A DNA stretch of 60,812 nt, counting the filler, from Hausera hauseri (lineage: Eukaryota), in assembly GCA_046269625.1 (NCBI GenBank). It is 10 parts of 10 records of this genome, joined end to end, with 100 filler letters (N's around TTAATTAATTAA, not from the genome) between each part and the next. Parts side by side here need not be neighbours in the genome. Positions count along the whole stretch, not along the records: positions 21,123 to 28,794 come from JBJURY010001237.1; 9 more parts are not named here. One strand, 5' to 3'. The position numbers were made by a program, and so were the translations under genes. Of the stretch, positions 7,635-43,890 are shown in pieces. Each line of letters begins with the position of its first letter. Position 1 is the stretch's first letter. Under the pieces are notes generated by a model. It saw only the letters and a list, made by a program, of their open reading frames with translations. It did not search any database and was not told the origin of the DNA.

Positions 7635-8300
7635 GTAAGGTATAGTAGTCATAAGTGTACAGGGGATCTTGGCATCCGGGGTAAGTGATACTTGCAAGTA
7701 ATTACTAGGAGAAACTTCCCCCTCCTAAATTAAGCAATTATAGTAAAGACTAGTTATTGTTCATGTTTTGATGAGACTGGAGACAATCTATCATATATTA
7801 GAACAGCCTGGGATTCTATCATCACTATCACCTTTCCCCTACCACACGTAGACTTTTTGGGAACACTGAAAGATTCATTGACGACTTCCCTGGATTTGTT
7901 TCTTTTCCGTGCTGCGTTACGTGATGCTCTGGATGTTGACATCACCATGTTCTGCAATTATGTATTAACGCCCTCTTTTCCTCCGCGAACACAGCAATTA
8001 TGTATTCGCTATCTCCATTCTCTTGAGCGCAAAACAATTCTGTATGAAATTCTGTCTTGCTCCTGCAAGGAGATTATCTCTTTGTCCCTTTTATGGAAAG
8101 AAATAGCTCACCTTCTTTTTTACAACACGGTCTGCAAAGTCTTCGACATTATGGAATGAGTGGGCGGCTTCACCGCATTTCTGTGAACACAAACTTGTAT
8201 AAATTAACTATCTACAGATAATCTGTATTCTTAATGAAGAACCCTCCAAAGATTTAGCTTGTTATTATGGATTTTTTTGGGAGGGTGTGTGGGGGGGGGG

Positions 8301-9733: not shown

Positions 9734-10219
9734 TTCTTTTTAAAGTTTCAATTGTATCATTTTTGTGTCTGAGGTCTATTTGAGCATCTGACAACTGTGA
9801 TTTGAGATTTTCCAATTTAACATTCAAAGAAGCAACTTATCGATCGGTCGGAGAATTTCCGAATTCCGTTCTTAATTAATCAAAAAGTTTATCAGATGAT
9901 GATTTGACTTCGAGTCTAGATATTTGTTCAATTAATTTATTCGTTTTCCTAACTCATCCTGAGAAGCTTTGATTTGTTCTTGTAGTTTGAACAGATGCAA
10001 ACGCTCGTTCGGGGACGGTAATTTTGCATAGGATGCTCGGCTACCTGTGTTTAACAGGAAACAAACCAAGATTCAGTGGTGCTCGCTCCTTCGACGAATC
10101 TTGGAAAATTTTCGAGGCGGGAAATCGGGCCCAACTATGAATCCGAAGCGACGGAAACGGACGCCTGGCTGCGTCCGACCAAATAGACCAGAGGGCACCG
10201 GCCACTGCGGGCACCACAT

Positions 10220-12746
10220 AGCTTCTGGCCAACGTAATGAACGATCCATCATGGTCAAAATGAACTGATGACCGTTTTCAGGAGGAAGGAGTGGCTTCAA
10301 ATGTTTGGTGATTTTAAATTTCTGGCAAGCCATGCATTCCTTAATCCACGCTTGCGCATCAGAACGCATTGACGGCCAAATTACCTGTGGGTGGAGTAAA
10401 CGAAAAGTGGCCTTAGCGCCAGGGTGGTGTAGCGAATGCACACTGTTAAACGCTTGCCGTTGTAAAGGTGGTGCGAAAATTATTACTGATTGATCTGGTT
10501 TGGAAGTGTCTAAAGCCACGCCGTCAACAATTGTGCAAGACTTAAAAGAATTAAGCATGTCCTGAGGTGGCTGGTAATGTTGAAGTTGTACTTGATAGAA
10601 GATTGGTGAAAAATTAATCGAACCAACCGTCCTAGATAAAAAATCGGCAAACAAATTATTAACCCCGTTAATATGTTTTATGTCAAAGTTAAATGTTGAC
10701 AAATATAATATCTGTCGTTTTTGGCGTGAGGAAAGATGTTTCATAGCCATGATGTTTAGCAAGGGCTTGTGATCGGTCTGTATGGTAAAATGGTGAGCAA
10801 CAAGAAGGTGGGAGAAATGCTTTAAAGCGAGAACGATGGCCAATAATTCTTGACCGAACGTTGAATACCTAGTTTCAGGGAATGTTAGCTTAAGAGAAAA
10901 AAATTCTGGCGGTTGATATTTTCTTTTGTGGACTTAATGAAGCACAGCACCTACCGCAGTTGTTAAAGCGTCTGTAGTAAGGATGAGTTTCGCATCAGGC
11001 TTAGGGAAAGCGAGAATGTCGACGGTCTTAATTCCTTCGCGTAGCTTATCAAACTTATCAACCAGTTCAGGTGTCCACTGAAATTGGCTTACGTTTTTTG
11101 CCGCCGCTTAAGTGTGCAAATGGTGCCTTACGTTCAGAGCAGTACGGCACATACTTATGAACGAAGTGCAAAGTTCCCAAAAAGCTTCTCATTTCTGTTG
11201 TTGTTCGAGGTAGCTACACCTTTTTATGGCTTCAACTCAATCGGGCTGAGGAGAGTGACCTTCAGCAGAAATAATGTAACTATGGAAATTTATACGCTTC
11301 TGGGAAAAGTAAAATTTGGCAGAATTGACCTGCAGATTATGCTGGTGTGAACGTCGCAAGATTGATCTGAGATGTTCCTCATTTTGTTGGTTCAAAGAGA
11401 AAACAACTAATATGTCATAAATATATGGGTGAGCATATGGAAAATGAGAAAGGATAGCATCAATGTGGCGTTGAAAAGTCTGTGCGGCATTCCATAGGCC
11501 GAAAAGCATGTACAGATATTTGTAAAGGCCAAAAGGAGCAGTTACGGCTGTTTTTAGATATGATCTGGTGCCACCGGAATTTGGTGGTAGGCTTTGAATA
11601 AACCAATGGTAGAATAAATTGTGATATTGTTAAGACGGTGTAAAATATCCTTAATGAGTGGTAGCGAACATGCATCCATTATTGTCAAAGTGTTCAACTG
11701 ACAATAATTGCTACATGGTCGAAAAGTTCCGTTTTTCTTTTGCACGACATGTAATGGTGATGACCATGGGGATTTAGAGCGACGTACAATGCCGAAACGT
11801 TCGAGTTCTAGAAATTCGGCTTTAACCACCTGTCTACGAGGAGGAGATAATGGACGCACTTTTTAGCGGATAGATCTTTGACGTTGTGTGACAATGTGGT
11901 GAAAAGTGGTAATTGCTGGAGTAAAGACTTCTCTTTTTTAATTATTCTAGAACAGGTTACGTTAATGAATTGCTGAAGACTTGCAGGTAATTGTAAAAAG
12001 TTTGGTGGGAGCGAGGTGGTTTTATCCGTAACTGATGCAATTTGGACGTTATTTGGTGTTCTAAAATGAAGTGGTATTCGATTCAGGATGGTAGTACTGA
12101 AGATGGTAGTATAGATTGTATTTTATCTAATGATTCGGCAGTGGTAACAGAATCACTTTCATCACCGTGCAAACTCCAATCGCCAGTAATATTGTTCATC
12201 AGTAATTTATAAAATATGGTACAATGATTGTAAGAAAAAGGTTTGTTCAACGGTTTTTTAATATCGGCTTTCGAGTAATATTCACCTGTACGACAGCCGA
12301 AATGGTATTGGCGTGATCAATTTGCTCCTTATTGCAACCACTTGTTAAGCAACGTTGCTTGCAATTGACAAGTAGATTATAGTGCGAAAGAAAGTCGGAT
12401 CCTAAAATGGCTGTCTGGACGTTTACAACGGTAAATGTCCAGTGAAACATTGAAGTAAATTTCGGAAGGGTAAAAGAAAGCCTGCATGTACCGGAAACGT
12501 GTAGCGGTTGTCCAGAAGCGGTAAATAGAAGTTTATTTTTGGATGAAGTGTGTTGAGTTGAAAAGTGAGCGGCAGTAAGGACATCGCTGCACCTGAATAG
12601 ACGAGGAAATCTATATGGCGGAATGTTGATAACGTAGTTACTGCTTTTACTGTAAATACGGTGAATGATAGTTTTTGGCTGGTAGAAACTGAAGAATGGC
12701 CTTCACCAAGACTCGTCGTAAGCTCTGGCGGCGGAATTAATTTTTT
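10220..12746 (-). pseudogene. pol: pol pseudogene (PR, RT, RNase H, 5' integrase)
   Basis: ORF fragments 12247-12450, 11554-11859, 11237-11509 and 10073-10843 with frameshifts. Integrase lacks the VHVDIVGP segment seen in the 35-kb copy and runs into unrelated sequence at ~10220. Confidence 0.9.
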
Positions 12747-14060
12747 GGCAGTGGTGAACTTGGGCGGCTGTTAGAAGACAAGACAGTATGTCCGACGTTC
12801 GTATGCTGTGTGCTGCTTCTAAAGGTACAACCAGGAATACACTTATGCGCCTCATTCTTAAATTTTGAGTGGTAGATGCACATAGGTTTGTTAACTTGAT
12901 ACTTTTGACTGTACAAGCGGCACCCGAGATGATATTTTTGTGATTTACGAGCAAACCTATCATGGTAGAAACAGATCAGCGATCGCGCAGGAGACGGTGA
13001 CCGACCTCTGGATACAGACCGTGTGCGATCGGAGGTGGAACTCTTTCGTTGAGACAAAGAGATTTTATTTAAACTATCATTGATATTGTTTATTGTATTA
13101 TGTAGGACTGCGTTTTCAGTACGCAACTGTTGAATTTGATATTCTAGTGTGTTGTCGTTTGCTGTAAGTGATGCAGAAATGATATGCTGTTTGTTTAGGT
13201 GTAAGACCTCGTAATTTTTTGCCTGCAAGTTCGGCTCAATTATCCAGCGCCGTCGATTCCTCGACGATGGTAAGCAGAGCCCTGATCTGAATCGGTAATG
13301 CATTTAGAAAGTAACGCCGTAATAGATAGGAATTATTTTGTTTTGCAACGCCGAGTGTTTGCAGTTGAGTGAGAGAGGTTCTGAGAAAATCGGATAATTT
13401 TTGTGTACCCATAGCATTATCATTGAAGAATCTATGGATTATGGAATCCATAGACAGTTCCTTGAGTTTCAAAACGGCATTATAAAGATTGGTGTACGGG
13501 TCGGAGTGTTGATAGATGTCTAAGATATCGTGAAGAGAAGTTTTTACTGTGTTTGGTAAGAGGCAAAGTAAACTATGAGCTTTGGCAGATGGATCAATAA
13601 TGTTGTTAGACTGCAACCAGAGTTTGTGAAAGTTAAGCCAGGTTTTGCTGGACTTTTCATGATCAGTAAAGTACTTGCATTAAGAACAAGTGTGTTTGGA
13701 TGGCGAATGGAAGGTGCATAAGCGGTGAAAGTAGATGGCATGGTTACGGTCGTTGATTTTTGGTGAAAGTGAAAGGTGATGGTTTAGAGGTAGTTTTGTC
13801 AGTTGTGTCAATGGTGGGCGAAAATTCTATGCCACCATAAATACGAATGTGTACGCGAATAACGACATAACGGGGTGAAGGAACAAAAAGGTTGCGGAAA
13901 TTGGCATTAATTACAGGTAGGTTGTTGTAAGTCAGGTAAAAATCAGAAATATTAGTGAAGCGTAGTAAGTAATTGTGCAAGTAATATACGTCAATAAAAT
14001 ACGTTGCATTGTGAGTAATTGGCAATTATTAAGGAAGAATAAAACGGAAAGTGCCAGCGT
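12737..14060 (-). pseudogene. gag: gag pseudogene with N-terminal ubiquitin-like domain
   Basis: FYLTYNN...IRVHIRIYGG (ends 13831), capsid-like MGTQKLSDFLR..YFLNALPIQIR, knuckles CFYH.. and CIYHSKFKNEAHKCIPGC, ends KN*. Confidence 0.8.
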
Positions 14061-15849: not shown

Positions 15850-18800
15850 TCTCTTCATCTCCCTATCTCCTATCTCTCTATCTCTCTATCTCTCTATGTC
15901 CCAATCTCCCTATCTCTCGACCTCTCTATCTCGCTATCTATCTATCTGAATCCCTATCTCTCTTTCTCTCTACCTCTGTATCTATTTCCCTATCTATCTA
16001 TCTCAAACTCTATTTCTCTATCTTTCTATCTCTCTATCTCTCTATCTCTCTAACTCTATCTCTCCATCTATCTATTTCTCTATCTCACTATCTCTCTATC
16101 TACCTCTCTATCTCTCTATCTCTCTATGTATCTATCAATCAATCTATCTCTCTATCTCCCTATCTCCCTATTTATCTATCTCCCAATATGTATATCGCTC
16201 TATCTCCTTATCTCTTTATCTCTCCATCTCACTGTCTCTCTATCTCTCTATCTCCCTATCTCTCTATCTCCCTCTCNNNNNNNNNNNNNNNNNNNNNNNN
16301 NNNNNNNNNNNNNNNNNNNNNNNNNNNNNNNNNNNNNNNNNNNNNNNNNNNNNNNNNNNNNNNNNNNNNNNNNNNNNNNNNNNNNNNNNNNNNNNNNNNN
16401 NNNNNNNNNNNNTATCTCCATATATTTCTCTCTGTCTATGTCTCTATCTCACTAGCTCTCTATCTCTCTATCTCTTTGTATCTCTATATCTCTATATCTC
16501 TACCTATCTATCTGCCTCTCTGTCGCTCTATCTCTATCTATATCTACCTCTACCTATCTATCGCTCTATATCTCTATCTCCCTATCTCTCTATCTCTCTA
16601 TCTGTCTCTCTGTATCTCTATCAATCAACCTCTACCTCTCTATCTCTATATCTCTTTATCTCCCTATATCTCTATCTCTTTATCTCTATATCTGTCTATC
16701 TGTCTATCTCTCTGTCTCTCTATTTCTCTATCTCCCTATCGCTATATCTCTCTTTCCCTCTATCTCTCTATATCATTATCTATGTATCTCTGTGTCTCTC
16801 TATGTCTCTAACTCCATATATCTCCATCCCTCTATCTCTCCATCTTTCTACCTCTCTATCTCCCTATCTCTCTATCTCTCTACCTCTCTATCTACCTCTC
16901 TATCTCTATCTCTCTAATTATCTCTCTATCTCTCTATCTCCCTATATCTGTATCTCTTTGTCTCTCTATCTCTCTTTCTATCTATCTCTCTCTTTATATC
17001 TATCTCTCTATATCTCTATCTCTCTATCTCCCTATATCTCTATCTCTGTATCTCTGTATCTCTCTATGTCTCCATCTCTTTATCTCTGTATCTCTGTGTC
17101 TCTCTATATCACTATCTCCACATACCTCCATCACTGTACCTCTCCATCTTTCTACATCTCTATCTCCCTATCTCTCTATCTCTCTATGTGTCTATCTATA
17201 TATGTCCATATCTCCCTATCTCTCTATCTCTCTATGTCCATATCTCTATATCTACCTATATCTCTATCCCTCTATCTTTCTATCTCACTATCTCACTATC
17301 TGACTCCGCATCTCTCTATCTCTCTTCCTCTGTATCTATTTTTCTATCTCTCTATCTCTCTATCTATCTCTCTATCACTCTATCTCCCTATCTCTCTATC
17401 TCGCTGTCTCCCTATCTCTATATCTCTTTATCGCCCTATCTCTCTATCTATCTGTCTCTCTATCTCCATATATCTCTATCTACCTATCTATCTATCTCTC
17501 TGTACCTATCTCTCTATCTCTCTATCTCTCTATCTCCATATATTTCTATCTCTCTATTTCTCTACCTCTCTATCTCTCCATCTATCTATATATCTTTCTA
17601 TCTCCCTATCTCTCTATCTCTACATCTGTCACTCTGTGTCTCTATCAGTCAACCTCTATCTCTCGATCTCTAGATCTCTCTATCTATCTATCTCGCTATA
17701 TCTCTACCTCTATCTCTCTATCTCTATATCTGTCTATCTCTCTATCTCTCTATGTCTATCTCTCTCTCTCTCGCTCTATCTCTCTATGTCTTTATCTCTG
17801 TATCTCTGTGTTTCTCTATGTCTCTATCTCCATATATCTCTATGCCTCCATTTCTCCATCTCTCTACCTCTCTATCTCTCTATCTCTTCATTTCCCTATC
17901 TCCTATCTCTCTATCTCTCTATCTCTATCTCTCTATCTCCCTATCTCTCTATCTCCCTAATTCTGTATCTCTCTATCTCGCTATCTCGCTCTCTATCTCT
18001 CTATACCTCTATTTATCTACCTCTCTATCTCACTATGTCCCTATGTAACTCCTTATCTTTGTATCTCTCTACGTCTCTATGTACCTCTCTGTCTCTCTAT
18101 ATTTCTATCTCTCTATCTGTCTATCTGTCTATCTCGCTATCTCTCTAACTCCATATCTCTCTAGCTGTCTATCTCCATATCTATCTATCTCTCTATATCT
18201 CTATCTCACTATCTCTCTATCTCTTTATCTCTCTATTACTCTAACTCTCTATCTCTCTACCACTCTATCTCCATGTATATCTATCTCTATTTCTCTATCT
18301 ATCTAGCTCTCGATCTCTGTCTCTCTATCTCTCTATGTCCCTATTTCTCTACATACATATCTACCTCCCTATCTTTCTATCTCTCTATCTCTCTATATCT
18401 ACCTCTCTACCTAAATATCTATCTATCTCTCTATCTCTCTATCTCTCTACCTCTATATCTCCATTTATCTATCTCTCTATCTCTCTATCTCTCTATCTCT
18501 TTAACTCTCTATATATTATCTATCTCTCTATCTCCATGTATCTTTGTCTCTCTATTTCTCTACCTCTCTATTTCTCTCCCTCTATCTCTCTATGTCTCTA
18601 CCTCTCTACCTATCTATCTGCCTATTTATCTCTCTATCTATCTCTATATCTGCCTCTCTAGCTATCTATGTCTACCTCTCTATCTCTCTGTCTCCTTACC
18701 TCTCTATCTCTCCATTTATCTACCTCTGTGTCTCTGTATTTCCCTATCTGTCTATGTCTATATCTCTCTGTCTTTATATGTCTATCTCTCTACCAATCTA

Positions 18801-21022
18801 TCTCTCTATCTTTCTATCACTCTATCTCTCTATCTCCATATAGCTCTCTCTCTATCGCTCTATCTCTCTATATCTCTATCTCTCTATCTCTCTATCTCTC
18901 TATGTCTATCTCTCTATATCTCTATCTCTCTATCTCTCTATCACTATCTTTCTATCTATCTCTCTATCTCTCTATCTCTCTATGTCTATCTCTCTATATC
19001 TCTCTCTCTATCTCTCTATCACTATCTTTCTATCTATCTCTCTATCGCTCTATCTCTGTATCTCTGTATCTCTCTATCTCTCTGCCGCCATACATCTCTA
19101 TCTCTCTATCTATCTCTCTAGGTCTCTATCTCTCTATCTTTGTTTCTTTTTCTCTATCTCCCTACCTCCCTATCTCTCTATGTCTCTATCTCCCTATGTC
19201 TCTAGCTTTATATCTCTTTCTCTCTATCTCTCTATGTCTCTATCTCTCTACCTATCTATATGCTCTTTATCTCTCTATCTCTCTATATATACCTCTCTCC
19301 CTATCTATCTCCCTATACCTCTATCTCTCCATCTCTCTACCTTTCTATCTCTCTATCTCTCTATCTCCCTGTCTCGCTATCCCTCTATCTCTCTATCTCT
19401 GTATCTGTCTATCTGTCTATCTTTCTATCTCTTTATCTCTCTACGACTCTATCTACCTCTCTAACTCTATATCTCTATATCTGCCTCTCTAACTAAATGT
19501 CTCTGTACCTCCCTATATCTCTCTCTCTACTACTCCATCTCTCCATCTCTATTTCTCTCTATGCCTCTATCTCCCTATCTCACTATCTCTCTATTTCTTT
19601 ATTTCTTTACCTCTCTATCTCCCTATCTCCCTATCTCTCTATGTCTCTATCTCCCTATCTCTGTAGCTCTTTATATCTCTTTCTCTCTATCTCACTATGT
19701 CTCTATCTCTCTACCTATCTATCTGCTCTTTATCTTTCTATCTCTCTCTATATATATATACCTCTCTACCTATCTGTCTCTCTATCTCTCTATCTTTCTA
19801 TCTCTCTATATCTCTCCATCTGTCTATCTATCTATCTCTCTATCTCCCTTTTTCGCTATCTCTCTATCTTGCTATCTCTGTCTATCTCTCTATACCTCTT
19901 TCTATCTATCCATCTATCTCACTATGTCTCTATCTGAATCCCTATCTCTTTATCACTCTGCCTCTCTCTGCCTCTCTATATCTCTATAGCTCTATCTCTC
20001 TATCTCTCTATCTCTTTATCTCTCTATCTCCCTATCTCTCTATCTACCTATCTCTCTATCTCGCCATATGCCTATCTCTCTATCTCTCTATCTCCCTATC
20101 TATCTATCTCTCTATCTCGTTATCTCTCTATCACCCTATCTCTCTATATCTCTATAACTCTATCTCTCTATGTCTCTAACTCTATCTCTCTATCTCTCTA
20201 TCTCTCTATCTGGCTATCTCTATATATCTCTATCTCCCTATCTCCCTATCAATCTGTCTATCTATCTCCATATATCTCTATCTACCTATTTATCTATCTC
20301 TCTATCTCTCTATCTCTCTATCTCTCTATCTCCATATATTCCTATCTGTCTCTCTCTCTCGATCTCTCTAGCTCTCTATCTCTTTATCTCTCTATGTCTC
20401 TATGACTCTATCTCTCCATTTATCAATCTCTCTATCTCTCTATCTCACAATCTATCTATCTCTCTATCTCTGTGTCTCTCTGTATATCTATCAATCAACC
20501 TCTATCTCTCTATCTCTCTATATCTCTATCTCTCTATCTCGCTATATCTCTATCTCTTTATCTGTCTATCTCTCTTTCTATCTATCTCTCTCTCTTTATG
20601 TCTATCTCTCTATATCTCTATCTCTCTATCTCCCTATCTCTCTATCTCTGTATCTCTGTATCTCTCTATGTCTCTATCTCTTTATCTCTGTATCTCTGTT
20701 TCTCTCTATATCACTATCTCCATATATCTCCATCACTGTACATCTTTCTACATCTTTATCTCCCTATCTCTCTATCTCTCTATCTCTCTATGTGTCTATC
20801 TATCTATGTCCCTATATCCCTTTCTCTTTATCTCTCTATGTCCATATCTATATACCTATATCTCTATCTCTCTATCTTTCTATCTCACTATCTCACAATC
20901 TCTCTATCTGTCACTCTGCATCTCTATCAGTCAACCTCTATCTCTCTATCTCTAGATCTCTCTATCTACCTATCTCGCTATATCTCTACCTCTATCTCTC
21001 TATTTCTATATCTGTCTATCTC
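15850..21022. repeat. Degenerate (TCTCTA)n/(TCTA)n simple satellite
   Basis: Whole contig is pyrimidine-rich TCTCTA/TCTA variants (internal N gap 16277-16411); the S/L/Y/I-rich ORFs are artefacts. Confidence 0.97.
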
Positions 21023-21122
21023 NNNNNNNNNNNNNNNNNNNNNNNNNNNNNNNNNNNNNNNNNNNNTTAATTAATTAANNNNNNNNNNNNNNNNNNNNNN
21101 NNNNNNNNNNNNNNNNNNNNNN
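21023..21122. other. Artificial contig spacer
   Basis: N-run with TTAATTAATTAA core. Confidence 0.97.
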
Positions 21123-21890
21123 AAAGGAAGGTGGTTTTGGACAAGTAATCGGAGAGGTTATATTGACATACGAGTGTGAGACGAAAAACGTATCGATCAA
21201 CGTAGAAGAAAAGAGATGTATACAAGAACTTCCAGTGACATATCAGGACGTCCCAAGATTAGTAACACCAATTACAAGAGTGTTGCTAGCAAACGCCACT
21301 CAACCGACAATTTTGAGAGACTGTAAAACTAGCTTAGGAAAGCCGATGTTCAGACGTAGCGAAATTGACTGGGTAAGTTTACCAAACGGCGGTATTATTG
21401 CACCGCCTACCAAATTGACAGGAACAAACCTAATAAAAGGAATAACCGATGACAAATTTCAAGACAGCCGCGAAGGGTATTTATGGACCAAAAGAAGTAG
21501 AGGCGATCAGACAATTTCTCGCTTTTCCTCGTCAACACACACATGAATTAAACAGAGCAATGCATACAATATTGGAGGACTCGCGCTATCAAGCGAGATG
21601 GGAATCATTACTTGGTGTTGGCTATTACAAGAAAGTAACCACAGAAATATTAAACAAAATTTGGGGAAGATTCCTGATATTCGGACAAGCCGCGTCAGGA
21701 TTTCTAGCGATAGACTTCGTAATTCAATTAGTAAAAGCTATAATTCAAGCAATCATAAGTGAATATGAGATATATACTTTGACAGGATTCTCGTGTAAAA
21801 TTTTAACGGCTATTATTACACCCTTCGGTAAATTCTTAAAAGCTTATGAAGAAAGTAAATGGAAAACAAATGTGGAGCGACATGTGGGTT
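21123..21890 (+). pseudogene. Chuvirus-like glycoprotein (env-like), C-terminal half
   Basis: GEVILTYEC...CIQELPVTY...LVTPITRVL...C...P.F, KGIY..E.EAIRQFLAFP, KIWGRFLIFGQAASGFLAI..VIQLVKAII...Y.LTGFS matches the motif series of Chuviridae-type glycoproteins; frameshift near 21450. Confidence 0.78.
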
Positions 21891-22472
21891 ACCATAATCG
21901 AAAACGCAAAGGACACATTTGATTATAGACAGAAATTCATAGTCAATAAGACACGAAGAAATAATTCCGATAATGAAGAGACTAATGGAGGAGGCATCAT
22001 CACCAGGCCGAGTAGGCACAAAAACTACTCTGTTATGAAACTACCATTACCAATATTTCCACCAACGGCACCTATATATGAAGATAGCGAGAAACAATCT
22101 ATGAGCTCGTGCCAGATAGACATCTATCGGAAGCCGTTTAGTTTAGAGGATCCTTACGAAGGAACAAAACGCTATAGAATATTGCGCAAGATCCACGAAA
22201 CAGAGAGGACCTCGGCTCCACCTTATCGGTCAGCAGTCGACGACCACAATATAATTTACTCACCTACAATACCTAAGCCAAACGAAACGCAATTGATATT
22301 TACTCGAAGCTGTGAGGCACGAAATCTCCGAAACACAGATGTTCAGCCACCAGTTAGAAACCCAAGAGTAGAAAACGCGAATGGAGCGAATAACGAACTA
22401 TACCCAATTGGAGAGTTAAGACAGTTAGTCGAGCAGCCAGTTGGAACCACTGAAGTTACCATCAACGGTTAA
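21846..22472 (+). CDS. Pro-rich linker/cytoplasmic tail between glycoprotein and protease with late-domain-like motifs
   Basis: 208-codon open frame with PTAP (22062-22073) and ELYPIGELRQL (22395-22427); same frame as the downstream protease ORF, separated by one TAA. Confidence 0.55.
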   Translation: MKKVNGKQMWSDMWVTIIENAKDTFDYRQKFIVNKTRRNNSDNEETNGGGIITRPSRHKNYSVMKLPLPIFPPTAPIYEDSEKQSMSSCQIDIYRKPFSLEDPYEGTKRYRILRKIHETERTSAPPYRSAVDDHNIIYSPTIPKPNETQLIFTRSCEARNLRNTDVQPPVRNPRVENANGANNELYPIGELRQLVEQPVGTTEVTING

Positions 22473-22475
22473 AAA

Positions 22476-25400
22476 GTGTCTACCACACGACAGCCCAATA
22501 TAGCACCAAGCTATTACGGTACAGTAATCGAAGGCAGACCCTTCGCAAAGATTCAGTTGGAAGATTTGGAGCTTTACGCACTAATAGATACGGGATCTGA
22601 AATCTCACTGATAAAATATGATTCGATACCACAATTCTTACGGAAACAATTATATCCACCTCCTACGACAGACCCAGGAAGCATTGGAGCCTTTGGACAA
22701 TCGTAGAAAAGTAAATTTTGTTGGAAACCAGAGATTCACATAATGGGACAAATTTTTCATCACGAATTCTCAGTAATGGAGCCATTAACGGACGATGTAG
22801 TGTTAGGGTGTGACCTATTGAGACAACTACCTAATATATCAATCGATTTCAGTGCAGGCAAGTTGATAGAACTTGGTCCAATAAAGGAGTTAAAACCACT
22901 AAAGACAGAAAATTTGGAGAAGTGTGGATTCCAGTGGATGAAACCATACCATCTAGAACAGAAATCCTAATATATGCTCAGATACGTCAGGATGATAATC
23001 AGCCGATATATTTTGGACCAAAGGAATCGCTCGATCCAAACCTCGTGCTCAGCAATATTTTGACAAGAGTATCAACAGGCCGCGTGCCAATCAGAATAGA
23101 AAATAATGCGCCAACTCCAACCAAACTGTACGCCAATACTACTCTAGGCCACACGTATAGAGTGTCATCGATTACCATCGAAGAGAAGCCATATAAGGGT
23201 GCCGAATTTCCACCCCACGTTGAGACTAAATTTACACCAGAATCATATTGTCGATTCTACGAACTACTTTGTTGCTATAGCTCAATTATCGCGAGAGATA
23301 AAGAGGATATTGGCCGAGCCAAAACTTTGAGGCTCACGATTCCGCTTAAGAAAAAGCCAGGATCTAAAGACGAAATAGACTTAGAGGATCAAAAGATGCC
23401 GAAATGGTATCCTCCTCCACACTAGCTAAGGCCAGAGATAACTAAGGAAGTTGAACGAATGTTAAAGGCCGACATAATTAGACCAAACTATCGATCTTGG
23501 TATTCACCTATACTAATGGTTAAGAAGAAAGGTACCAGTAAGCACCGATTTCGTATCGATTACCGAGCGTTAAACACACTGATGGTGAAAGACTCTTCCA
23601 TTACCATCAGTAAAGGAAGCTTTAGACAGACTTTCGGTAGCGAAATGGTTTACTACGCTCGATTTGCAATCTGGATATTGGCAGGTAGAGATAGAGGAAG
23701 AAGATCGTTACAAAACGGCATTTAAGACACATTACGGTATATATGAATTTAATGCTATGCCATTTAGAATTACTACCGGACCGGGCATCTTTACCCGTAT
23801 GATGAATAAGATGCTGATGGGACTTGAACACGCATTCGCCTATTGGGACGATGTCATGATTGCCTCGAAAACGGAAGAGGATAACTTAAAGGATATCGAA
23901 GGTACGCTCATGAGATTAGAGCAGGCTGGATTAAAACTGAATCCCAAGAAATGCAAATGGGCTAAAAATGCTGTATCATACCTTGGACACATAGTTGGAG
24001 AAGGAGGATCAAAACCGGATAAATCATTATTAAGTAAGATATCGGATTGCATGGAACCTCAGAACCAAAAGGAATTAAGACATTGGTTGGGTTTGTGTGG
24101 GTATTATGCCACTTACGTGCCAGAAAACGCAAAGATAAATGCACCCTTGTATCGTTTATTAAAGAAAGGAATCAAATGGAAATGGACCGATGTTGAACAA
24201 AAGTCTTTTGATGAAATGAAGAAAATTATGATATCTCGACTTCAACCTACCATTTATAATCAAAACAGACGCCAATAAGGAAGGTATCGGATATGAACTA
24301 ACCCAAAAACAAGAAGACGAGGAATTAGAACACTCGATTGCATAAAGAGGACGTTCTTTAAAGAAAGAAGAAAAGAACTATTTGTTACGGAACTAGAAAC
24401 ATTAGCAGCAAAAGAATCACTGCGGCATTTTAATGTATATGTCTACGGACAAAAGATCATAATCGTTACGGATCATAAGGCAGTTACGACCTTGAAGGGT
24501 ACAGTGAATAATCCAACTTGTAGACTCAACAGATAGATTGAGGAGATATCGCGATATAATATCGAGTTCCAATAAAAGCCCGGAAGTAAGCATGTCGATG
24601 CTGACGCATTATCGAGACTTAAAACCAAAACAAGCGCAGTTACAGTAATGAAGAAAGCACACCTTAAAGATTTAATAGAAAGACAAAGGACTCTCACACT
24701 AAATAAGGCATAAAAGATTGCTGTTAAACAGAGAAAAGACAAGGTTATACAACAGATTATCGAGTTCGTCGAGACCAACGTAACAACCAAGGCTCATCAG
24801 TTATGGAAACACTTACGACAATATGGTCACAAATACTGCGTCGCTGGAAATTTGAACCGCGAAAATATGTTATATTACGAACGAAAAGCACGGAAATTAG
24901 TCGTCATACCGAAAGAACTACGAACGGAAGTACTCATGGCCGAACACGATTCATACTTAGCGGGACACATGTTATGGAAAAAGACATTAGAAAGGATTTT
25001 AAATAAGTAATATTGGCCGAGCATCTATATCGACGTAAGAAATTGGGTGAATGCTTGCAAAGCATGCGCAACTAAGCAAAGAAAAGTAAAAAAATTACGT
25101 CGCTGAGCTTAAACCTACTGACGTGCCCGATAGGCCAATGCAAGCAATGTCTATGGATATTGTAGGACCGTTACCTACAACATACAAAAATAACAAATAT
25201 ATTCTGACCTGTGTAGGTCGATTGACTTATTTCGTCGAGCTTATAGCGTTACTAGACCAAAAGGTTGAGACCTTGGCAGAAGCGGTAGTTCAGAAGATCA
25301 CTTGCAGATACGGGCCATCCGAACAAACATTTACACACCGAGGAAGAAACTTCACGAGTGAACTGTTCGAGAAAATTACCAAAATTTTTGAGATCGAACG

Positions 25401-26000
25401 ATTAACTACCACAGCTTACCTTCCCCAATGTAAAGGAATGGTCGAGTGAATGAACGCGACCGTTATACAGATCTTATCAACAGTAGTCACGAAGGACCAG
25501 AAAGATTGGGATAAGTTCTTAGAAGACACACAGTTCGCCATTAATACTACTCCACATCCTGCGACAGGATTCACTCCATTTTTTATGATGTACGGTTGAG
25601 AAGCTGTACTGCCTACCGACTTAGGACTGATTTCATATAAAACAAGAACAGAAGACTTAGAGTAAAATTTTGTCGAGGTATTACAATCAAGATTACACAA
25701 GTGTTGGGAAATAATCAAAGACGTATCTAAAGACTACCAGGAACAATTTAAGAAGCAGTATGATAAGAATGCTAAACCGCACGATTTAGAACCCGGAAAC
25801 TGGGTTTACGTACACTACCCAGTGGCGGAAAAAGGCACATTTCTTAAACTTACTAGAACCGGTAGGGACCTTATGACGTTACTAAGGTTACGCCGACCAC
25901 AGTTTATATAAATAAAAACGGCAAAGAAGAGGTTGTATCGATTCAGAGAGTAGTAAAGACGGAAATAAGGCCGGATAAACGCTATCATTTGCGTTCAAAT
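22476..26000 (+). pseudogene. pol: Gypsy pol pseudogene (PR, RT, RNase H, integrase)
   Basis: ALIDTGSEISL and VLGCDLL (PR); SPILMVKKK, DYRALN, SGYWQV, KTAF, YWDD (RT); TDHKA (RH); MDIVGPLP, TTAYLPQCKG, GPY (IN); ends RYHLRS; many stops/frameshifts. Confidence 0.93.
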
Positions 26001-27356
26001 AAGATTAATAAAGAAAAGAAAACATCGTCAATCGTAACCAGACCGGTATCATGTGTACAAATAATTCTTGCCCTATCGTTAATCGCTTCGTATATGCCTA
26101 CAGCGAAATCAATAACTAGAGCCGAAAAACTACGATACGCGATGAAACGCCGGGATATCCAAAACATGCAGTCACTTAGAGTACGTGATTTGGATTGGAG
26201 TAAACCATGTGCATGGTTCGAAGCAAGCGAACCGGTTCAGAGCTATGTAAAATTTCAGATAATATTTGTCACCGGAAACACGATGAGAACGTGCGATTTT
26301 CCGTAGGGACATTACAAAAGATGTTGTGATTTAGACTTTGGACGAGCCTACGCATACAGATTTTAAATGTTTTATTCTAATCAGTTTGGAGCTCAAGCTT
26401 ATATACATTTAGAACTTGTAATAAGAATGCCCCAACGGAAGGATGCAAATCAAGCCAAGACGGACGAAACAATCCGAAGCACTGACCCGTTTAAAAGGCT
26501 CTTAGATTATAACATTATGGGAATTTACAAGGACTTGAAGAATCAATGCATACGAATTGAAACTAAGATAGAACTGCCTGGAGACAGACAAATTTCTATC
26601 CGATTTATACCATTGAATGCTTCTATTCCTATTCCAAAGTATTGTTTTTTGGCCAGACACCGATCTACTACGTGCTGCGTAATACAATTATGACAAAAGT
26701 ATCAGTTGCAATTCGATTTGTATAATACGTACCCCGGAGAGCCAAGCACTTATTTGCGTGGATATCGCCCGAGAATTGGAATATGGGAGCTTCCTCTTCC
26801 AACCACTACAAGTAAACCATCTACAAGTCCAAGTACAACTCTTCCTACTACGATCGTCACTTTGGACAAAATACCAGGAAGCATGCCAGTTAAGATTTTG
26901 GCAAAAAGCGACAAAATTGTATTTTATGCAGAAGAGACACTTAGTCGAGACATCAAAATTGAATGTCATACTTTGCACACCAACCAAGTCGTGATCCTGA
27001 AAAAGAATAGTCAAGAAGTTGAATGCAGGTTATTACGACCACAACATGACTATATAATCAGAATTACCGCAAAGGGTAAGAATCCTAAAACTTTAACAGT
27101 ACGAACTCTTGGCAATAAAGTTGAAGTAATGCCATATAAAGATATCAGTACTCAAAATGTATTCACCACGGAAAGTTCTATTGAGCCGAGTAATTTACCG
27201 TTAATAACTATATTTAGTTTGTCAATTTTCGTTCTTGTCATAATAACAGCGATGATTTTTCTAGTTCCCAAAAATTGTAATAAACGCTGTAAAAATCAAA
27301 AGGGATATAAATGGGTAAACGAGCACCGAGACGGACCTTATGATAGCATAACCTGA
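25989..27356 (+). pseudogene. Type I membrane protein (signal, Cys-containing FN3-like domains, S/T stalk, TM, short tail) in frame with integrase C-terminus
   Basis: ORFs 25989, 26367 and 26706 share one frame broken by three stops. Signal-like VQIILALSLIASYMPTAKS, FN3-like LLRPQHDYIIRITA, TM LITIFSLSIFVLVIITAMIFLV. Confidence 0.65.
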
Positions 27357-27949
27357 CAACTACAGATCGGGTTATCCTATCATCAGACAGAGAAAATGTT
27401 TTATTTCAAAACGATGACCTGTCTTAGGATTAACCTTTATTTTTATTTTAGCAGAGTAAGTATGGCCGAGAAGGCGAAAAATTCAGCAGTCAGTTCCAAT
27501 TTCGATATCGATGATTTCTTCCAGCAGCACGTCACTGTTCTTAAACCACTGTCCAAAAGTCTATACCGACAAATTGGAGAAACCCGAAAATCCAGAACTA
27601 TCTAGAGTTCAACCAAGAGAGTAAAAGACCAAACGGACTAAAATGGGGCTTAGAAGAGAATCGACTGGTTCGATTATATGCCATGAGAAATCCAAAAGAT
27701 GCACGAGCATACCTTTTAAGAGATCTAATTCAATATGAGCCGACACATTAGCAATTGTACGTACATGTCGCTGATGGAGAAATTAAATACAGAATCGTAG
27801 GACAATCCTGGAGTACGCAAGAAGGGCAGCAGTGGAAGTTTAGTACTTATGAGCTATGTTGCTAAAGCCTCATGAATTATGCCATAGAATTTAGGATCGC
27901 GGACCTTCCGACCAAAATCATGATCGAGATGACGTAGCGAACCGATGTA

Positions 27950-28645
27950 ATGAAGCCGCTACCACAGTTATTATACGTACAGAAACCATCGGAAGACGAG
28001 GTAGAGCAAAATGGAGAATCTTACAGATTAGTTGCAGACGGTAGGAACACCAGAATACTGGCCGTAAACTATGGAGAAAAAGATAACAGGTGGTATGCTC
28101 CAATTGAGGTCTCTATCAAAAATATTAATGGAGAAGAGATCCTAAATAAAATAATCGCGCCTCGAGTTATAATAAAGGACACTTTTCTTGACGTCACAGG
28201 AATTACGAAAGTTCAGCTTGAAAAAGGAAAGGATTTTTTGGAGATCCAAGAAGATATAAGCCATTGCTTATATGGATACGTCGTTACCGGATTCCGAGTG
28301 CACGAAGCTCTGGAGCGACTAGGAATTAGGCAAGAATACATGGCCGGAATTTGAGAAGTGAGCCGAAACCCAACAGTAGTGAGTCAAGTAGAAAACACGT
28401 TGATGCGGAAAAGAGGTTGTCTGCTTCCTTCCTCAGCATCTCGCGAATCACAGTTCAAAATGATGCTAAAGGCCATGAATGGCGAACAGTTAAAATTCCC
28501 TAAACTAGTGACAACGAGCCAACGAACTAAATTTATAAAGGACACCTATGACCATCTACGAGGGGATCACGAATGGAAACCCAGAAATCCCATACAGAAT
28601 GCGATATGCGACAACAACCCCAAGGCACTGATACAAAAATTTTGA
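27950..28645 (+). pseudogene. REX4/ISG20-like DEDDh exonuclease homologue with catalytic residues substituted
   Basis: EVSIKNINGEEILNKIIAP..DVTGIT..L..G.DFLEIQ..I...L.G.VVTG....AL..L follows the REX4 pattern RVSIVN..G..V.D.FVKP..VSGI...F...Q......L.G.ILVGH...DL; one in-frame TGA at 28352. Confidence 0.65.
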
Positions 28646-28794
28646 AAAGGGTTTAGTGAATACCCGAGCTATAGGCAGATCGAACCCCAAGGACATAACC
28701 GATTTTGAGTAACAATACATAATAACCCAATGGAAGTCCCGAACAACCAACAGAAACCATCAACCAGTAAAGCCCAAGGAGAAGTAACAATAAA

Positions 28795-28894
28795 NNNNNN
28801 NNNNNNNNNNNNNNNNNNNNNNNNNNNNNNNNNNNNNNTTAATTAATTAANNNNNNNNNNNNNNNNNNNNNNNNNNNNNNNNNNNNNNNNNNNN
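28795..28894. other. Artificial contig spacer
   Basis: N-run with TTAATTAATTAA core. Confidence 0.97.
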
Positions 28895-34693: not shown

Positions 34694-35049
34694 GCGGCAA
34701 GGCGCGAACTGTAAAGATAAAACGAAATACGCAATGAACGCAAAACAAAGTAATGTGAACTAACTATACGGTCTTCCTATATACAAGGCGTTGTATTCCT
34801 TCAGATTTAGCACTATACTGTAGGTGTCGTTGAATCCGGTTGACGAGTTGATGAGGATAAAACTATGTCGGATGTCGTAGTTGAAGTTGGTATATTGTTC
34901 AGAGACGAGGAATGGGCTGGATGGGAAAATATAGGAGAAGAGGGGAGAAAAGTGGGGATATTAGTAGAAGGGATTTTAGGGGTAGGTTCTAGTAAAGGAG
35001 AAGGTGTAGGGTTTAGAGAAATGGGAATGGGAAAAGGTATTTGCGTCTG

Positions 35050-38000
35050 AAAAGGTGTAGAAGGTTTAATTTGGGGTGCATCATCAACGAAATAGGCTGG
35101 CTTTACGTTGTTGATGTGTACCGCCAGTTCCTTGCCGTCTTAAAAATAATGGCATTGTGGAAATTCAATTGCACGAGTTTGTAAGGCCCAAAATACCGTG
35201 GTTGAAAACTGCACGGCATTTGGTTTCTCAACCAGACGAATTTTGCATAATATAGATCCTCCGGTAAATATGTTCTATTGTTATTCAAGATCCTGCAGAA
35301 GAAATCTTTGATGACTAAAACAAAATGATCTTGTGCTAATCGGATAGTTTCGTCTGTCGGTGTATCTTCTAAGGCCGTTAACTCAAACAATGAACGTACG
35401 GGTGTTCCGAAAAGGGCTTCAATAGGTGAATAACCTGTAGAGGTAGAAGGGTTGTTACGCCAACCCAGAAGGATCAACGAAAGGAGAGTAGTCCAACTGC
35501 TATTGGATTCTGCGAGGATCCTCAATGACGCTTTTAGTGTTCTGTGGATTCTCTCTAGAAGACCACTCGATTGAGGGTAATACGGTGACGTGTGGATGTG
35601 GCTGATTCCTAATCGGTTAACGAGAGATTTAAACAAATTGGACTCAAACTCAGTACCTTGGTCCGTAATAATGAATCTAGGAGATCCAAATCTGCTGATC
35701 CACGTGCGTATAAAAAAGTAGGCTATTGTGTCCGTATTGGTGCTCCGTAGTGGGACGGCTTCCGGCCATCGTGATGAACGATCCATCATGGTTAAAATGA
35801 ACTGATGACCGTTGTCAAGAGGAAGGGGGCCAACAATATCAACGTGAACAGACTTGAAAAGTAATGTGCAAGGGAAACGGTATAATGGTGGCTTCAAATG
35901 TTTGGTGATTTTAAATTTCTGGCAAGCCACGCACTCCTTAATTCACGCTTGCACATCAGAACGCATAGTAGGTCATATTCCTTGCCGGTGGAATAAGAGA
36001 AAAGTCGCCTTAGCACCAGGATGATGCAAAGAATGTACACTGTTAAACGCTTGCTGTTGTAAAGATGGTGCGAGAAGTATTACGGAATGACCCGGTTTCG
36101 AAGTGTCTAAAGTCACGCCGTCAACAATTGTGCAAGACTTGAAAGATTTGAGCATGTCCCGAGATGGTTGGTTCTGTTGAAATTGTGCTTGAGTAAAGAT
36201 AGGTGAAAAGTTCATCGAAGCAACCGTTCTTGATAGGAAATCGGCAACCAAATTATTGACGCCGTTAATATGCTTTATGTCAAAGTTGAATGTCGACAGA
36301 TATGATATTTGTCGTTCTTGGAGTGAGGAAGGGTGTTTCATAACCATGATGTTTAGCAATGGCTTGTGATCGGTCTGAATGGTAAAACGGCGAGCGACAA
36401 GTGGGAAAAATGCTTCAAAGCAAGTACGATGGTTAATAATTCTCGATCAAACGTTGAATATCGAGTTTCAGGAGATGTCAGCTTACGGAAAAAAAATTCT
36501 AATGGTTGATTTTCTCCTTTGTACATTTGATGAAGTATAGCACCCACCGCAGTGGTTGAAGCGTTTGTAGTAACAATGAGTTCCGCGTCAGGCTTAGGGA
36601 AAACGAGAATGTCGACGGCCTCAGTTCCTTCACGAAGCTTGTCAAAGTTATTAACCAGGTCAGGTGTTTACTGGATTAGCTGATGTTTTTTGCCGCCGCT
36701 TAAGTGAGCAAATGGTGCCGTAAGTTCATAGCAGTACGGCATATACTTGTGAACGAAGTGTAAAGTTCCCAGAAAGCTCCTCATTTCTGATGTTGTTCGA
36801 GATAGTTGTATACTTTTGAGAGCTTCAACACGTTCTGGCTGAGGAGAATGACTGTTAGCTGAAATGGTGTGTCCTAGAAAGTTAATACGCTTTTGGGAGA
36901 AGTGGCATTTTGTAAAATTAATTTGTAAATTATGGTGGTTAAGTCGTTGGAAACAGAACGAAGGTGTTCCTCATGCTGTTTGGTTGAAGAGGAAGCAATC
37001 AAGATATCGTCGATATATGAGTGCGCGAAAGTGAAATCCGAGAGGATAGAATCAATGTGGCGTTGGAAAGTCTGTGCAGCGTTGCGTAAACCAAAAGGCA
37101 TATAAATGTATTCGTACAGACCGAAAGGTGTCGTAACGGCGGTTTTCTCAATGTCCTCAGATGTTACAGGAATTTGATGATATGCCTTGGCTAAGTCTAT
37201 GGTTGAGTATACTGTAGTAGAATTGAGCCGGTGTAGAATACCCTTAATTAATGGTAAAGGATATGCATCCATAACAGTTAAAGTGTTTTGTTGACGGTAA
37301 TCACCGCATGGTCTAAAAGATCCATCCTTTTTTGACAACGTGTAAAGGTGAAGACCAGGGCGATTTAAATCTGCGTACAATACCGGAGCGTTCAAGGTTT
37401 ATAAATTCCTCTTCGACAGCTTTCCTACGACGGGGTGACAAAGGGCGTACCTTTTGACGAATAGGTCTTTGGTGTTGCGTTATGATGTGATGAAAAGTGC
37501 TGTTTGTAGGTGTGAAAGTTCGGTCATTCTAGATTAAGCGGGGGCATGAATTGAGTATGTATTGCCGTAGGCTTGCAGGCAATTGCGAAAGATTGGATGA
37601 TGATGGTGGTGTTGAATCAATATGTGCTGTGACGAGTGATGTGTGATAGTTATTGAAATCAAGAGGGATTTAGTGTAGGATAGTAGCATTGAAAATAGTG
37701 TTTGAAGAGGTAATTTTGTCAAGTGAATGTACTGAACCAACACAATTGTTGTTGTCAGAACCAAATCTTGACTGAATATCAATATTGTCGTTAAAAAATT
37801 TACGAAATGAAGAATGCTTGTTGAAGAAAGTTGCATTACTTACAGAATGTTTGAGTATAGGCTTCCGCAGGTAGATCTTTTGCGCCTTAGCGGATATACC
37901 ATTTATTTGCTTGGTAAGATATCCAGTAGGGTTACGTTTCAGACACTGTTGTTTGCAATCAACTAAAAACTTATAGTGCGATAAGAAATCCGAACCTAAG

Positions 38001-38341
38001 ATTGCTGTGCGGACGTTAGCGACGGTAAACGTCCAATGAAATGTGGAATGGAATTTTGGTAAAGCGAACGACAATGTAGATGTACCTGAAATGTCAAGCG
38101 GTTCTCCAGAAGCCGTAAATAACAATTTAGCTTTGAATGGTGAATTTTATACGGGGAACGTGAGTGGTAGCAGAGAAACTGCAGCGCCTGTGTCGATAAG
38201 GAAATCTATGGATTAAATTGTTAGTGTGATTATCGAAGCCTTTAGTGTAAAGACTACAAAAGAAGAGTGTCGGCAGGTAATATTAAAGGAGTTGCCTTTG
38301 CCAGACTCTGCCGTGAGTACTGGCGGCGAAATCAGTTTTTT
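35050..38341 (-). pseudogene. pol: pol pseudogene (PR-RT-RH-IN)
   Basis: ORF fragments 37670-38125, 36874-37395, 36353-36547, 35973-36359 and 35103-35930. Confidence 0.92.
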
Positions 38342-39650
38342 GGATTGGTAAGTTAGGGCGATTACCTTTCAAGAAACTGGAATGTTTATCAGTAGCGTAG
38401 TTATTGTTAGTTTTATAGTTACGACCTGAAATACAATTCCGAGCTCTAGATCCGAATTTTGCATGATAGATGCAAACTATATGATCTGAGTATAGATTCG
38501 GCGAATAATATTTACAACTTGAACAACATTTATTTGCGTTGTTATTAAATTTGTCGTGGTAGTAACATACAAATGACCGCGTTGGTGACGGTGTTTGATT
38601 TCTGGAAGGAGAACGTGTTTGATAAGGTGAGGAAGCATTACGTCGATGTAAGGAAAGGTCATTCAGCTTGTCGTTGATGGTGTTGATTGTGTGTTGTAGT
38701 GCCTCATTTTCTGCGCGTAACTGATTCAATTGGTGCTCGATAGATGTATGTCGCTGACTGCCATCGGTTGTAATAGCGGCTGATATGATGGGTTGTGATT
38801 GGATTTGTAAAACTTCGTGTGCTTTATCGGCCAACTCAGCTAGTTTATCGAAGGCTGTAGAATCTTCAACAACTGTAAGCAAAGCCCTAATTTGAATTGG
38901 TAAAGCGTTAAGGAAATATCGTTGAAGTAGTTCCGGATTATGTTCCTTGGTGACGCCTAGAGTACGTAAGTGATCCAACAAAGTGCGTAGGAAATCACTA
39001 GGTTTTTGTGTCCCCATTTCGTTTCCGTTAAAGAAGCGTTGTACTATAGAGTCAATTGGTAGTTCTGTCAGTTTTAACACAGCATCGAACAATTGGGTAT
39101 AGGGGTCAGAGTGCTGAAAGATGTCCAGTAAGTTAAGGATTGAGGCCTTTATGGAGTTTGGTAGAAGGTAGAGTAGATTATTAGCTTTGGTTAACGAGTA
39201 TATAATGCCGCTGGATTGAAGCCAGAGTTGATAAAAGTGGAGCCAAGTTTTGCTAAAATTTTTATTATCTGCGATGTATTCAGAGCAATGTGAGGGTGTA
39301 TTTGTAGGTCTTTTATTAGATGAGTTAGTGTTGATTGAAGTAGGGGGATGGTTCGATTTGGAGTAGTAAAGAATGGATTTGGTTTTTGTGCTCGGCTTAT
39401 CTGTAATATCGCTGGTTGGTGAGGAAATCATACCGCCGCGGATTCTGTGATGTATATGAATACATAGAAAATAATATGAAGATGTAAGGTGTGGGAGGTC
39501 AGTTAAAATGAAACCATTGTGGGTTAAGTAGACGTCATTGTGGGCGGTAGCTTTACGAATGATGTCATATAATTGTAGTGTATCGATATAGTGTGTGATA
39601 TTTGTGGAATGTATCAATATGTTATTAGCAAAAAGGTAGATGGGAAATGA
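38283..39650 (-). CDS. gag: Ubiquitin-like domain-Gag fusion ORF
   Basis: Open frame FPIYLFANN...VYLTHNG...IHIHHRIRGG|M, capsid-like region, coiled coil, RS-rich stretch, two CHCC knuckles; a late frameshift carries it past the natural KN* end. Confidence 0.85.
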   Translation of the reverse strand, partial: SFPIYLFANNILIHSTNITHYIDTLQLYDIIRKATAHNDVYLTHNGFILTDLPHLTSSYYFLCIHIHHRIRGGMISSPTSDITDKPSTKTKSILYYSKSNHPPTSINTNSSNKRPTNTPSHCSEYIADNKNFSKTWLHFYQLWLQSSGIIYSLTKANNLLYLLPNSIKASILNLLDIFQHSDPYTQLFDAVLKLTELPIDSIVQRFFNGNEMGTQKPSDFLRTLLDHLRTLGVTKEHNPELLQRYFLNALPIQIRALLTVVEDSTAFDKLAELADKAHEVLQIQSQPIISAAITTDGSQRHTSIEHQLNQLRAENEALQHTINTINDKLNDLSLHRRNASSPYQTRSPSRNQTPSPTRSFVCYYHDKFNNNANKCCSSCKYYSPNLYSDHIVCIYHAKFGSRARNCISGRNYKTNNNYATDKHSSFLKGNRPNLPIQKTDFAASTHGRVWQRQLL

Positions 39651-39687
39651 CGTTGGTAAACAGCAAGCTGCGTAATGTGGTATTTCT

Positions 39688-42200: not shown

Positions 42201-42355
42201 GAGGAAAGTTAATGGATATTGTTTCATACATGAATATTCTATCACCGAGATTAGGTACGATAAATTTTGACAATAAATTCTTTTATGGGTACGATTCTTA
42301 TATGGTACTGCGGAAAAGTGATTTGAACTTTTGTTTAACTTTTGAAAAAATCAAA

Positions 42356-43890
<1,535 letters not shown>

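Follow-up and report, generated by a model that had tools for sequence, protein, structure and literature searches.

Ty3/Gypsy retroelements in which an envelope gene (env) precedes pol have been described in flatworms. In planarians, the Burro/GYPSM1 element has a 4,873-aa ORF1 in which env, with matches to mononegavirus glycoproteins, lies in frame between gag and the protease (PR); a dUTPase-like domain sits between PR and the reverse transcriptase (RT), and the element carries apoptosis and ubiquitin cargo (PMC6431247). Elements of the Burro type occur in large numbers in planarian genomes; for one of them, a role in aiding stem-cell survival has been reported (PMC13465017). Elements with a gB-type GAG-ENV-POL order have been reported in Platyhelminthes, Nematoda and Bryozoa, including six Schmidtea entries of 14.5-18.0 kb (PMC13524379), which we infer to be Burro, as their size is in line with the 4,873-aa ORF1; eight of the nine flatworm rows in that paper give no long terminal repeat (LTR) or primer site. 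Here we analyse a decayed, probable relative of these elements, a contig of Hausera hauseri (JBJURY010001237.1, assembly GCA_046269625.1) that occupies positions 21123-28794 of the window, by which we mean the whole 60,812-nucleotide stretch of DNA that was analysed.

The contig resembles Burro1-4/GYPSM1 in having a mononegavirus-like fusion glycoprotein upstream of PR, an extra domain between PR and RT, accessory open reading frames (ORFs) and a very high copy number; decayed copies of Burro elements are also known from another planarian. Ubiquitin-related cargo is a further point of likeness, represented here by a RING finger in P0003, a relative of the last ORF (ORF4), only; BIR, BCL2, MATH and RING domains are all absent from the contig, and the BIR, BCL2, MATH and ankyrin cargo of Burro, like its giant size, falls outside the view of a 7,672-nt contig. 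In contrast to Burro as described in PMC6431247, where these features are not named, the contig encodes a predicted membrane protein behind the integrase (ORF3), an exonuclease-like ORF (ORF4) and a candidate read-through signal. With the errantiviruses of PMC13524379 it shares a Ty3/Gypsy pol behind a gB-type env at a distance of less than 2 kb, the chuvirus-like glycoprotein being termed gB-like in that paper; those are intact elements, among which other ORF arrangements were not sought, whereas the copy studied here is decayed. By analogy, the element is one that works like a Burro-type GAG-ENV-POL errantivirus, none of the defining features that could be tested on the contig having failed.

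The order of env before pol is therefore already known from planarian Burro (PMC6431247) and GAG-ENV-POL errantiviruses (PMC13524379), and the claim of the first-pass annotation that this layout is undescribed does not hold. The candidates for novelty lie at the 3' end: a second predicted membrane protein, a pseudo-nuclease joined to a RING finger, and possible translational read-through. In the literature searched we found no description of an ORF3-type protein, of a lineage-wide pseudo-nuclease-RING or of the read-through, although figures and supplements of the primary Burro papers may already show 3' ORFs. The accounts retrieved on Burro, planarian exonucleases and Gypsy envelopes do not appear to deal with these 3' genes either, and the word "exonuclease" is absent from the main text of PMC13524379, the supplement of which covers front env domains only, a part missing on the contig.

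A single high-copy Ty3/Gypsy element

The contig lies on the + strand as one whole unit between two N44-TTAATTAATTAA-N44 joiners, and the adjoining contigs are unrelated to it. It starts inside the glycoprotein and ends inside ORF4, both ends being assembly joiners, so that Gag, the LTRs and the total size of the element lie off-contig. We ran a Pfam profile search on 20 unbroken frame pieces of the contig, 8 of which gave a match at E < 0.01; none of these 8 came from the linker, the PR-RT insert, ORF3 or ORF4. The features, read from 5' to 3', are as follows.

21123..28794, +: whole contig, from the interior of a decayed, env-bearing Ty3/Gypsy element of high copy number (joiners at both ends; coverage by contigs of runs X1 and X2)
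21124..21919, +: chuvirus/gB-type (class III) fusion glycoprotein (GP), C-terminal half, with a frame change at ~21450-21500 and a hydrophobic anchor at 21686-21763 (PF24664, hydropathy)
21840..22472, +: linker, predicted cytoplasmic, with late-domain-like PTAP (22062) and LYPx3L (22398) (sequence, shuffles)
22533..22880, +: aspartic protease, DTG at 22587 (RVP E 0.0024; sequence)
22922..23200, +: extra domain between PR and RT, ~90 codons, dUTPase-like by eye, in the same place as in Burro (sequence)
23426..24620, +: reverse transcriptase (YWDD) and RNase H (RH), interrupted by stops and frame changes (Pfam, structure match)
24900..26039, +: integrase (IN), with H2C2 finger, core, and tail with a terminal basic stretch (Pfam; sequence)
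26040..27356, +: ORF3, ~435 aa, a predicted type I membrane protein that continues the frame of the integrase tail and has three internal stops (hydropathy, sequence, Atlas)
27340..27461, +: bridge, in which the ORF3 stop TGA 27354-27356 is followed by CAA CTA and the frame is open into ORF4 (sequence, shuffles, folding, copies)
27462..28794, +: ORF4, cut by the contig end, with a beta-rich N-terminal domain followed by a DEDDh-like pseudo-exonuclease at ~28052-28380 (relatives)

The module order on one strand that had been read from the sequence at first pass is supported by Pfam for GP and PR-RT-RH-IN, and by ORF reading for ORF3 and ORF4. Decay is even along this order, as had also been proposed: there are 20 stops in 2,509 codons, with 0-1.35 stops per 100 codons across the eight modules (6-8 per 100 off-frame) and a homogeneous density among them (p 0.72).

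Other copies were collected as contigs of two public runs, X1 and X2, that matched at a likeness of at least 80%. There are 20,079 such contigs in X1 and 1,911 in X2; in each run they cover all 30 bins of the contig, and most are less than 95% alike (16,100 of the 20,079 in X1), a very high copy number as in Burro/GYPSM1. Read depth was not taken as copy number, nor were genes ranked by its variation along the contig. Every junction between modules is crossed by contigs from other copies. The joint between GP tail and linker (21910-22013) is crossed by two contigs, with a shorter side of 33 letters, and the linker-PR junction by an X2 record (22331-22646, 31 differences in 316 nt). One contig, with a shorter side of 40 letters, crosses the joint between integrase and ORF3 (25980-26056); an X2 record (27268-27417, 18 differences in 150 nt) crosses the ORF3 stop, and an X1 record (27359-27748, 61 differences in 390 nt) the junction between bridge and ORF4. 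No site along the contig has many molecules starting or stopping, and 1-5% of the matching contigs in X1 and X2 continue unlike. Since the junctions recur in other copies and there is no internal boundary, the modules belong to one high-copy element, as the first-pass annotation had supposed, and form a single enveloped-type Ty3/Gypsy element.

We next to this compared the codon positions of differences among copies, using the best-supported rows. Those private to the studied copy are spread evenly (9/7/7 over the three positions in ORF3), and those common to other copies fall mostly at the third position (7 of 11 in ORF3, p 0.039; 3 of 3 in ORF4).

Envelope glycoprotein, linker and pol

The glycoprotein was identified by the Pfam profile PF24664 (Monjiviricetes_fusion), which matched in two frames, at profile positions 368-436 (E 1.4e-6) and 474-603 (E 1.9e-18). 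The piece on the contig thus spans positions 368-603 of 653, the rear half only, and it is for this half that the proposed fusogen upstream of pol is confirmed, on the same strand and before PR. The match stops ~600 nt 5' of PR, placing env ahead of pol by less than 2 kb, as in gB-type GAG-ENV-POL elements.

The linker that follows contains a PTAP at 22062 and an LYPIGEL at 22398. In 20,000 shuffles, these motifs arose in 0.64% and 0.47% of cases, respectively, and both together in none; the proposed late-domain linker holds up as a motif pair. We take PTAP and LYPxL to be late-domain motifs. We also considered the linker as a short Gag, which would give an ENV-GAG-POL order as in two mites, and rejected this because the linker has no capsid or zinc-knuckle signal.

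Pol follows on the + strand as RVP (E 0.0024, below the cut-off), RVT_1 (E 3.3e-28), RT_RNaseH (E 1.5e-9), Integrase_H2C2 (E 8.8e-7) and rve (E 8.2e-7, below the cut-off), which is the PR-RT-RH-IN order, with a Ty3-type RT, of Ty3/Gypsy elements (Metaviridae). When the RT was compared with solved structures, entry 4ol8 ranked first of 12 and Ty3-G Gag-Pol second.

A predicted second membrane protein behind the integrase

ORF3 begins directly behind the basic stretch of the integrase tail, in the same frame. It comprises an internal signal-like stretch, 13 cysteines, a Ser/Thr-rich stalk, an FN3-like region at ~26880-27110, a transmembrane (TM) segment and a short tail. Hydropathy places a hydrophobic stretch near its N-terminus (~26050-26105) and a strong TM segment at ~27200-27270 (peak 2.96); this upholds, as a prediction, the earlier suggestion of a second membrane protein downstream of pol. 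The FN3-like region had no match in Pfam or PDB. All ten of the best Atlas family matches of ORF3 fall in one family or clan, and for the rear half the Atlas points to single-pass proteins with FN3 domains at 0.88, which is no more than a lead, as recognition is below the reliable level. On this lead, the nearest look-alikes of ORF3 appear to be cellular FN3 single-pass receptors.

ORF3 would act as a surface protein that binds a host partner. A part in entry or attachment is slightly favoured, with a captured receptor-like modulator nearly as probable. The predicted cytoplasmic tail (27276-27353) contains two juxtamembrane cysteines and two tyrosine-based motifs, which we presume to be of the sorting type.

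ORF4 and its relatives

Downstream of ORF3 there is a further ORF, as had been noted at first pass, but as one long ORF4 cut by the contig end rather than several. A search of 1.84 billion representative proteins with ORF4 returned three proteins: P0003 (870 aa, 42% identical to ORF4) and P0004 (333 aa, 53% identical), both encoded on ENA contigs, of 16.2 and 12.4 kb, and P0005, an RNase_T family protein that the three-row ORF4 alignment matches at a probability of 95.9 (hhalign). P0003 itself matches DnaQ (E 8e-4) and the polymerase exonuclease subunit family phrog_192 (E 1.1e-4), and RNase_T clusters appear in the Atlas at 0.87-0.89 for an ORF4 relative. DEDDh (REX4/ISG20/RNase T) fold and sequence homology was thus found, mostly via relatives and at weak to moderate E-values; the REX4-like domain of the first-pass annotation is recovered by this route, with no direct Pfam match. 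As a separate lead only, the Atlas look-alikes of P0003 residues 56-430 include the arenavirus nucleoprotein C-terminal exonuclease cluster (0.87).

Motif I of the exonuclease is without an acidic residue in all three sequences under either alignment register, and the motif II position is without an acid in both sequences that reach that far, so that the acids of motifs I and II expected of an active DEDDh exonuclease are lacking. Because the motif I acids are gone in the intact relatives too, the loss is older than the decay of the studied copy. The exonuclease of ORF4 is therefore likely to be inactive, judged from its residues, and the domain that had been called dead is dead by lineage, beyond the decay of one copy. 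P0003 ends in a C3HC4 RING finger (E 2.6e-7), past the point at which the contig stops. ORF4 might combine a pseudo-nuclease that binds RNA with a RING ubiquitin ligase and serve in counter-defence; both RNA binding and ubiquitin ligation would then be properties of ORF4-type proteins.

Structure prediction for ORF4 yielded two models of low quality (mean pLDDT 31 and 36). Nothing reached E<=0.001 in the fold search, and its weak beta-sandwich and cupin rows were not used. The exonuclease piece also matched FliL (E 0.0035), which we judged to be due to chance. No match was found in a prokaryote-genome scan with P0005 or in phage searches, and scans of viral contigs with RT, GP and the ORF4 alignment gave no relative. 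A metagenome scan with RT returned nine generic Gypsy loci (34-46% identity), none of which matches GP, ORF3 or ORF4.

Among described elements, bdelloid Vesta and Juno are LTR elements that carry a DEDDy exonuclease as ORF3 cargo, and they resemble the contig in having a DnaQ-superfamily exonuclease 3' of pol (PMC5408684). As described there, the bdelloid enzyme is RNase D-like (DEDDy) and stands in place of env, whereas the domain found here is DEDDh/RNase T-like, lacks the catalytic acids, forms part of a multidomain protein and is accompanied by env.

Nature of the contig

Taken together, we estimate at roughly 85% the probability that the contig represents a dead, internal piece of a high-copy Ty3/Gypsy element with a gB-type env before pol, most likely a Burro-like element from a flatworm, and that ORF3 and the likely inactive exonuclease gene are regular parts of its family. 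The module order, the equal decay, the recurrent junctions and the homology of ORF4 to two intact proteins without catalytic acids are established by the data. Several points weigh against this interpretation. In this decayed copy env and pol do not share a frame, since the frame changes between GP tail and linker; the dUTPase-like domain has no match in Pfam, PDB, NCBIfam or PHROGs; and the likeness to Burro is drawn from a published description. Gag, the LTRs, the full size and the BIR/BCL2/MATH cargo of Burro are all outside the span of the contig. No matching contig covers the full stretch, and the junction records are short and single, so that they link the modules pair by pair instead of showing one full-length molecule. 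The test of codon positions was small and filtered, using the 40 best-supported difference rows per listing (34 in ORF3 and 11 in ORF4). P0003 and P0004 were compared as protein sequences alone, and word-based searches among longer proteins with the C-terminal half of ORF3, the exonuclease piece and the GP piece gave 0 matches each.

Were the GP derived instead from an independent endogenous chuvirus or upstream element lying by chance beside an ordinary Gypsy copy, one could account for the difference in frame between GP tail and linker and for the variability of 21910-22015 among copies; jingchuviral glycoprotein inserts are also often found near fragmentary Gypsy copies without capture, and no clear Gypsy capture of them is reported in arthropods in PMC10084718. 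Yet many contigs of diverse copies cover the GP, two of them link its tail to the linker without a pile-up of boundaries, decay is homogeneous, and intact elements with this order have been published from flatworms. As GP-linker-PR junctions recur in other copies, the GP is not unlinked to pol in the manner of a stand-alone endogenous chuvirus, and we regard such an origin as highly improbable. It is also improbable that ORF3 and ORF4 are passengers of one sub-lineage, as host gene pieces or a nested insertion unused by the element. The cellular FN3 receptors among the Atlas look-alikes of ORF3, and searches that gave no ORF3 homolog, would suit this explanation; against it, ORF3 is intron-free and in frame with the integrase, copies differ at third positions, diverged intact relatives of ORF4 exist, and the junctions recur in one or both runs.

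By the model of Burro, this element would be expressed as one polyprotein, Gag (off-contig)-Env-linker-PR-dUTPase-like-RT-RH-IN-ORF3, which would pass the membrane twice after Gag and be cut by signal peptidase and the element's own protease. Budding would depend on ESCRT, recruited by PTAP and LYPxL at the cytoplasmic face of Env, and Env itself would bring about entry into cells. If ORF3 is a second surface protein, the element would be an invertebrate retroelement with split entry machinery, and a pseudo-nuclease-RING, if conserved, would be a candidate for countering the piRNA silencing of the host.

Possible read-through or splicing at the ORF3-ORF4 bridge

Each of the three stops is read through more often when CARYYA follows it, and the Providence virus example is UAG-CAA-CUA (PMC3542737). 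At TGA 27354 the ORF3 stop is followed by such a hexamer and an open frame. The chance of stop+CARYYA is 0.27% per given stop; of the 400 stop triplets on the contig, 2 have it, and TGA 27354 is the only one of them in a coding frame. Past the stop, the frame runs on without interruption for 35 codons into ORF4, as it does in 8.5% of shuffles; the two other frames close. When translated, the bridge aligns in frame to the N-terminus of P0004, with none of 2,000 shuffles doing as well; its alignment to P0003 is not significant, being equalled by 161 of 2,000. Among the differences listed, beyond which there are 197 further rows, one internal ORF3 stop differs in nearly all covering contigs and none lies at TGA 27354 or its hexamer; loose ends of divergent copies bracket 27348-27383.

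Two structures were predicted here, in folding windows picked after the motif had been noticed. The hairpin 27340-27384 is the most stable of 2,543 45-nt windows, but it encloses the ORF3 stop and so cannot act as a 3' stimulator of read-through, a role for which we rejected it. The alternative, an extended stem-loop at 27369-27436, lies 3' of the hexamer and has a z of -2.1 (3 of 200 shuffles), the lowest of 77 tiles, its raw energy being reached by 56 of 758 windows. The arrangement is like type I CARYYA read-through in tobamo-, beny- and pomoviruses and Providence virus, with a hexamer identical to that of the last, and also like type II read-through in its predicted extended stem-loop soon 3' of the stop and in that a structural protein would be lengthened (PMC3542737). 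It differs from the viral cases in having UGA, not UAG, and in being a prediction only, in an animal retroelement. Our literature search on CARYYA read-through in retrotransposons found nothing. For retroelement read-through more generally, the plant Copia element SIRE1 reportedly provides a precedent.

Ribosomes could reach ORF4 by reading through the ORF3 stop, which would yield a membrane-anchored extension of ORF3; alternatively or additionally, ORF4 could come from spliced RNA via an acceptor AG at 27450-27451. On the features of the bridge, we hold read-through to be somewhat short of an even bet and splicing close to one; the choice between them is about even, and both may operate. A serious contender, at just under even odds, is that RNA spliced at 27450, in cis or by spliced-leader trans-splicing, is the sole source of ORF4, as a free protein, with the leaky-stop context due to chance. 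The acceptor has the joint-highest pyrimidine count (13 of 15) and the most T among 222 YAG sites on the contig, a branch-point-like TTAAC lies 17-18 nt upstream, ATG 27462 is in good context, and both ORF4 relatives have Met at the start of the conserved core; a frame-bound acceptor alone would account for the in-frame alignment of the bridge to P0004. Splicing alone leaves unexplained the stop+CARYYA in its sole coding-frame instance, the frame open upstream of the AG and the stem-loop 3' of the ORF3 stop. Combining the two, we tentatively suggest, as a possibility below even odds, that these flatworm elements are complex enveloped viruses whose two surface proteins come from one polyprotein, and that programmed UGA read-through, with CAA-CUA and a switchable stem-loop that would also mask the splice branch point, hangs the pseudo-exonuclease-RING ligase on the cytoplasmic tail of ORF3. 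Joining ORF3 and ORF4 through CARYYA read-through would, if true, be an uncommon expression route in an animal retroelement, and one short RNA switch would pick between membrane-anchored and free forms of an RNA-binding ubiquitin ligase.

A donor-like GTAAGT lies 4 nt past the acceptor AG (27450-27461), and both ORF4 relatives have Val-Ser at the corresponding place. This match may reflect the same motif, as a micro-exon or a recursive splice site.

Other contigs of the window

The N44-TTAATTAATTAA-N44 joiners stand at 21023-21122, at 28795-28894 and at seven more places, so that the window consists of about ten unrelated contigs. No tRNA was found in the window, and an Rfam search gave a single match, at chance level. 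A degenerate 8-nt pyrimidine-rich tandem repeat of ~5 kb (15850-21022) forms a separate contig. Two decayed Gypsy copies, at 10073-13679 and at 34813-39710 (- strand), are 74-91% alike over common blocks and distant from the studied element. The stretches 42099-44760 and 56975-59608, in opposite orientation, are 85-94% alike over ~2.5 kb and each carries a C2H2 finger of the dsRNA-binding jaz type. Two ORFs run without interruption: a leucine-rich-repeat ORF of 437 codons at 6332-7645, and a divergent fibrillarin ORF at 55584-56540 (PF01269, E 2.8e-54), possibly a retrocopy.

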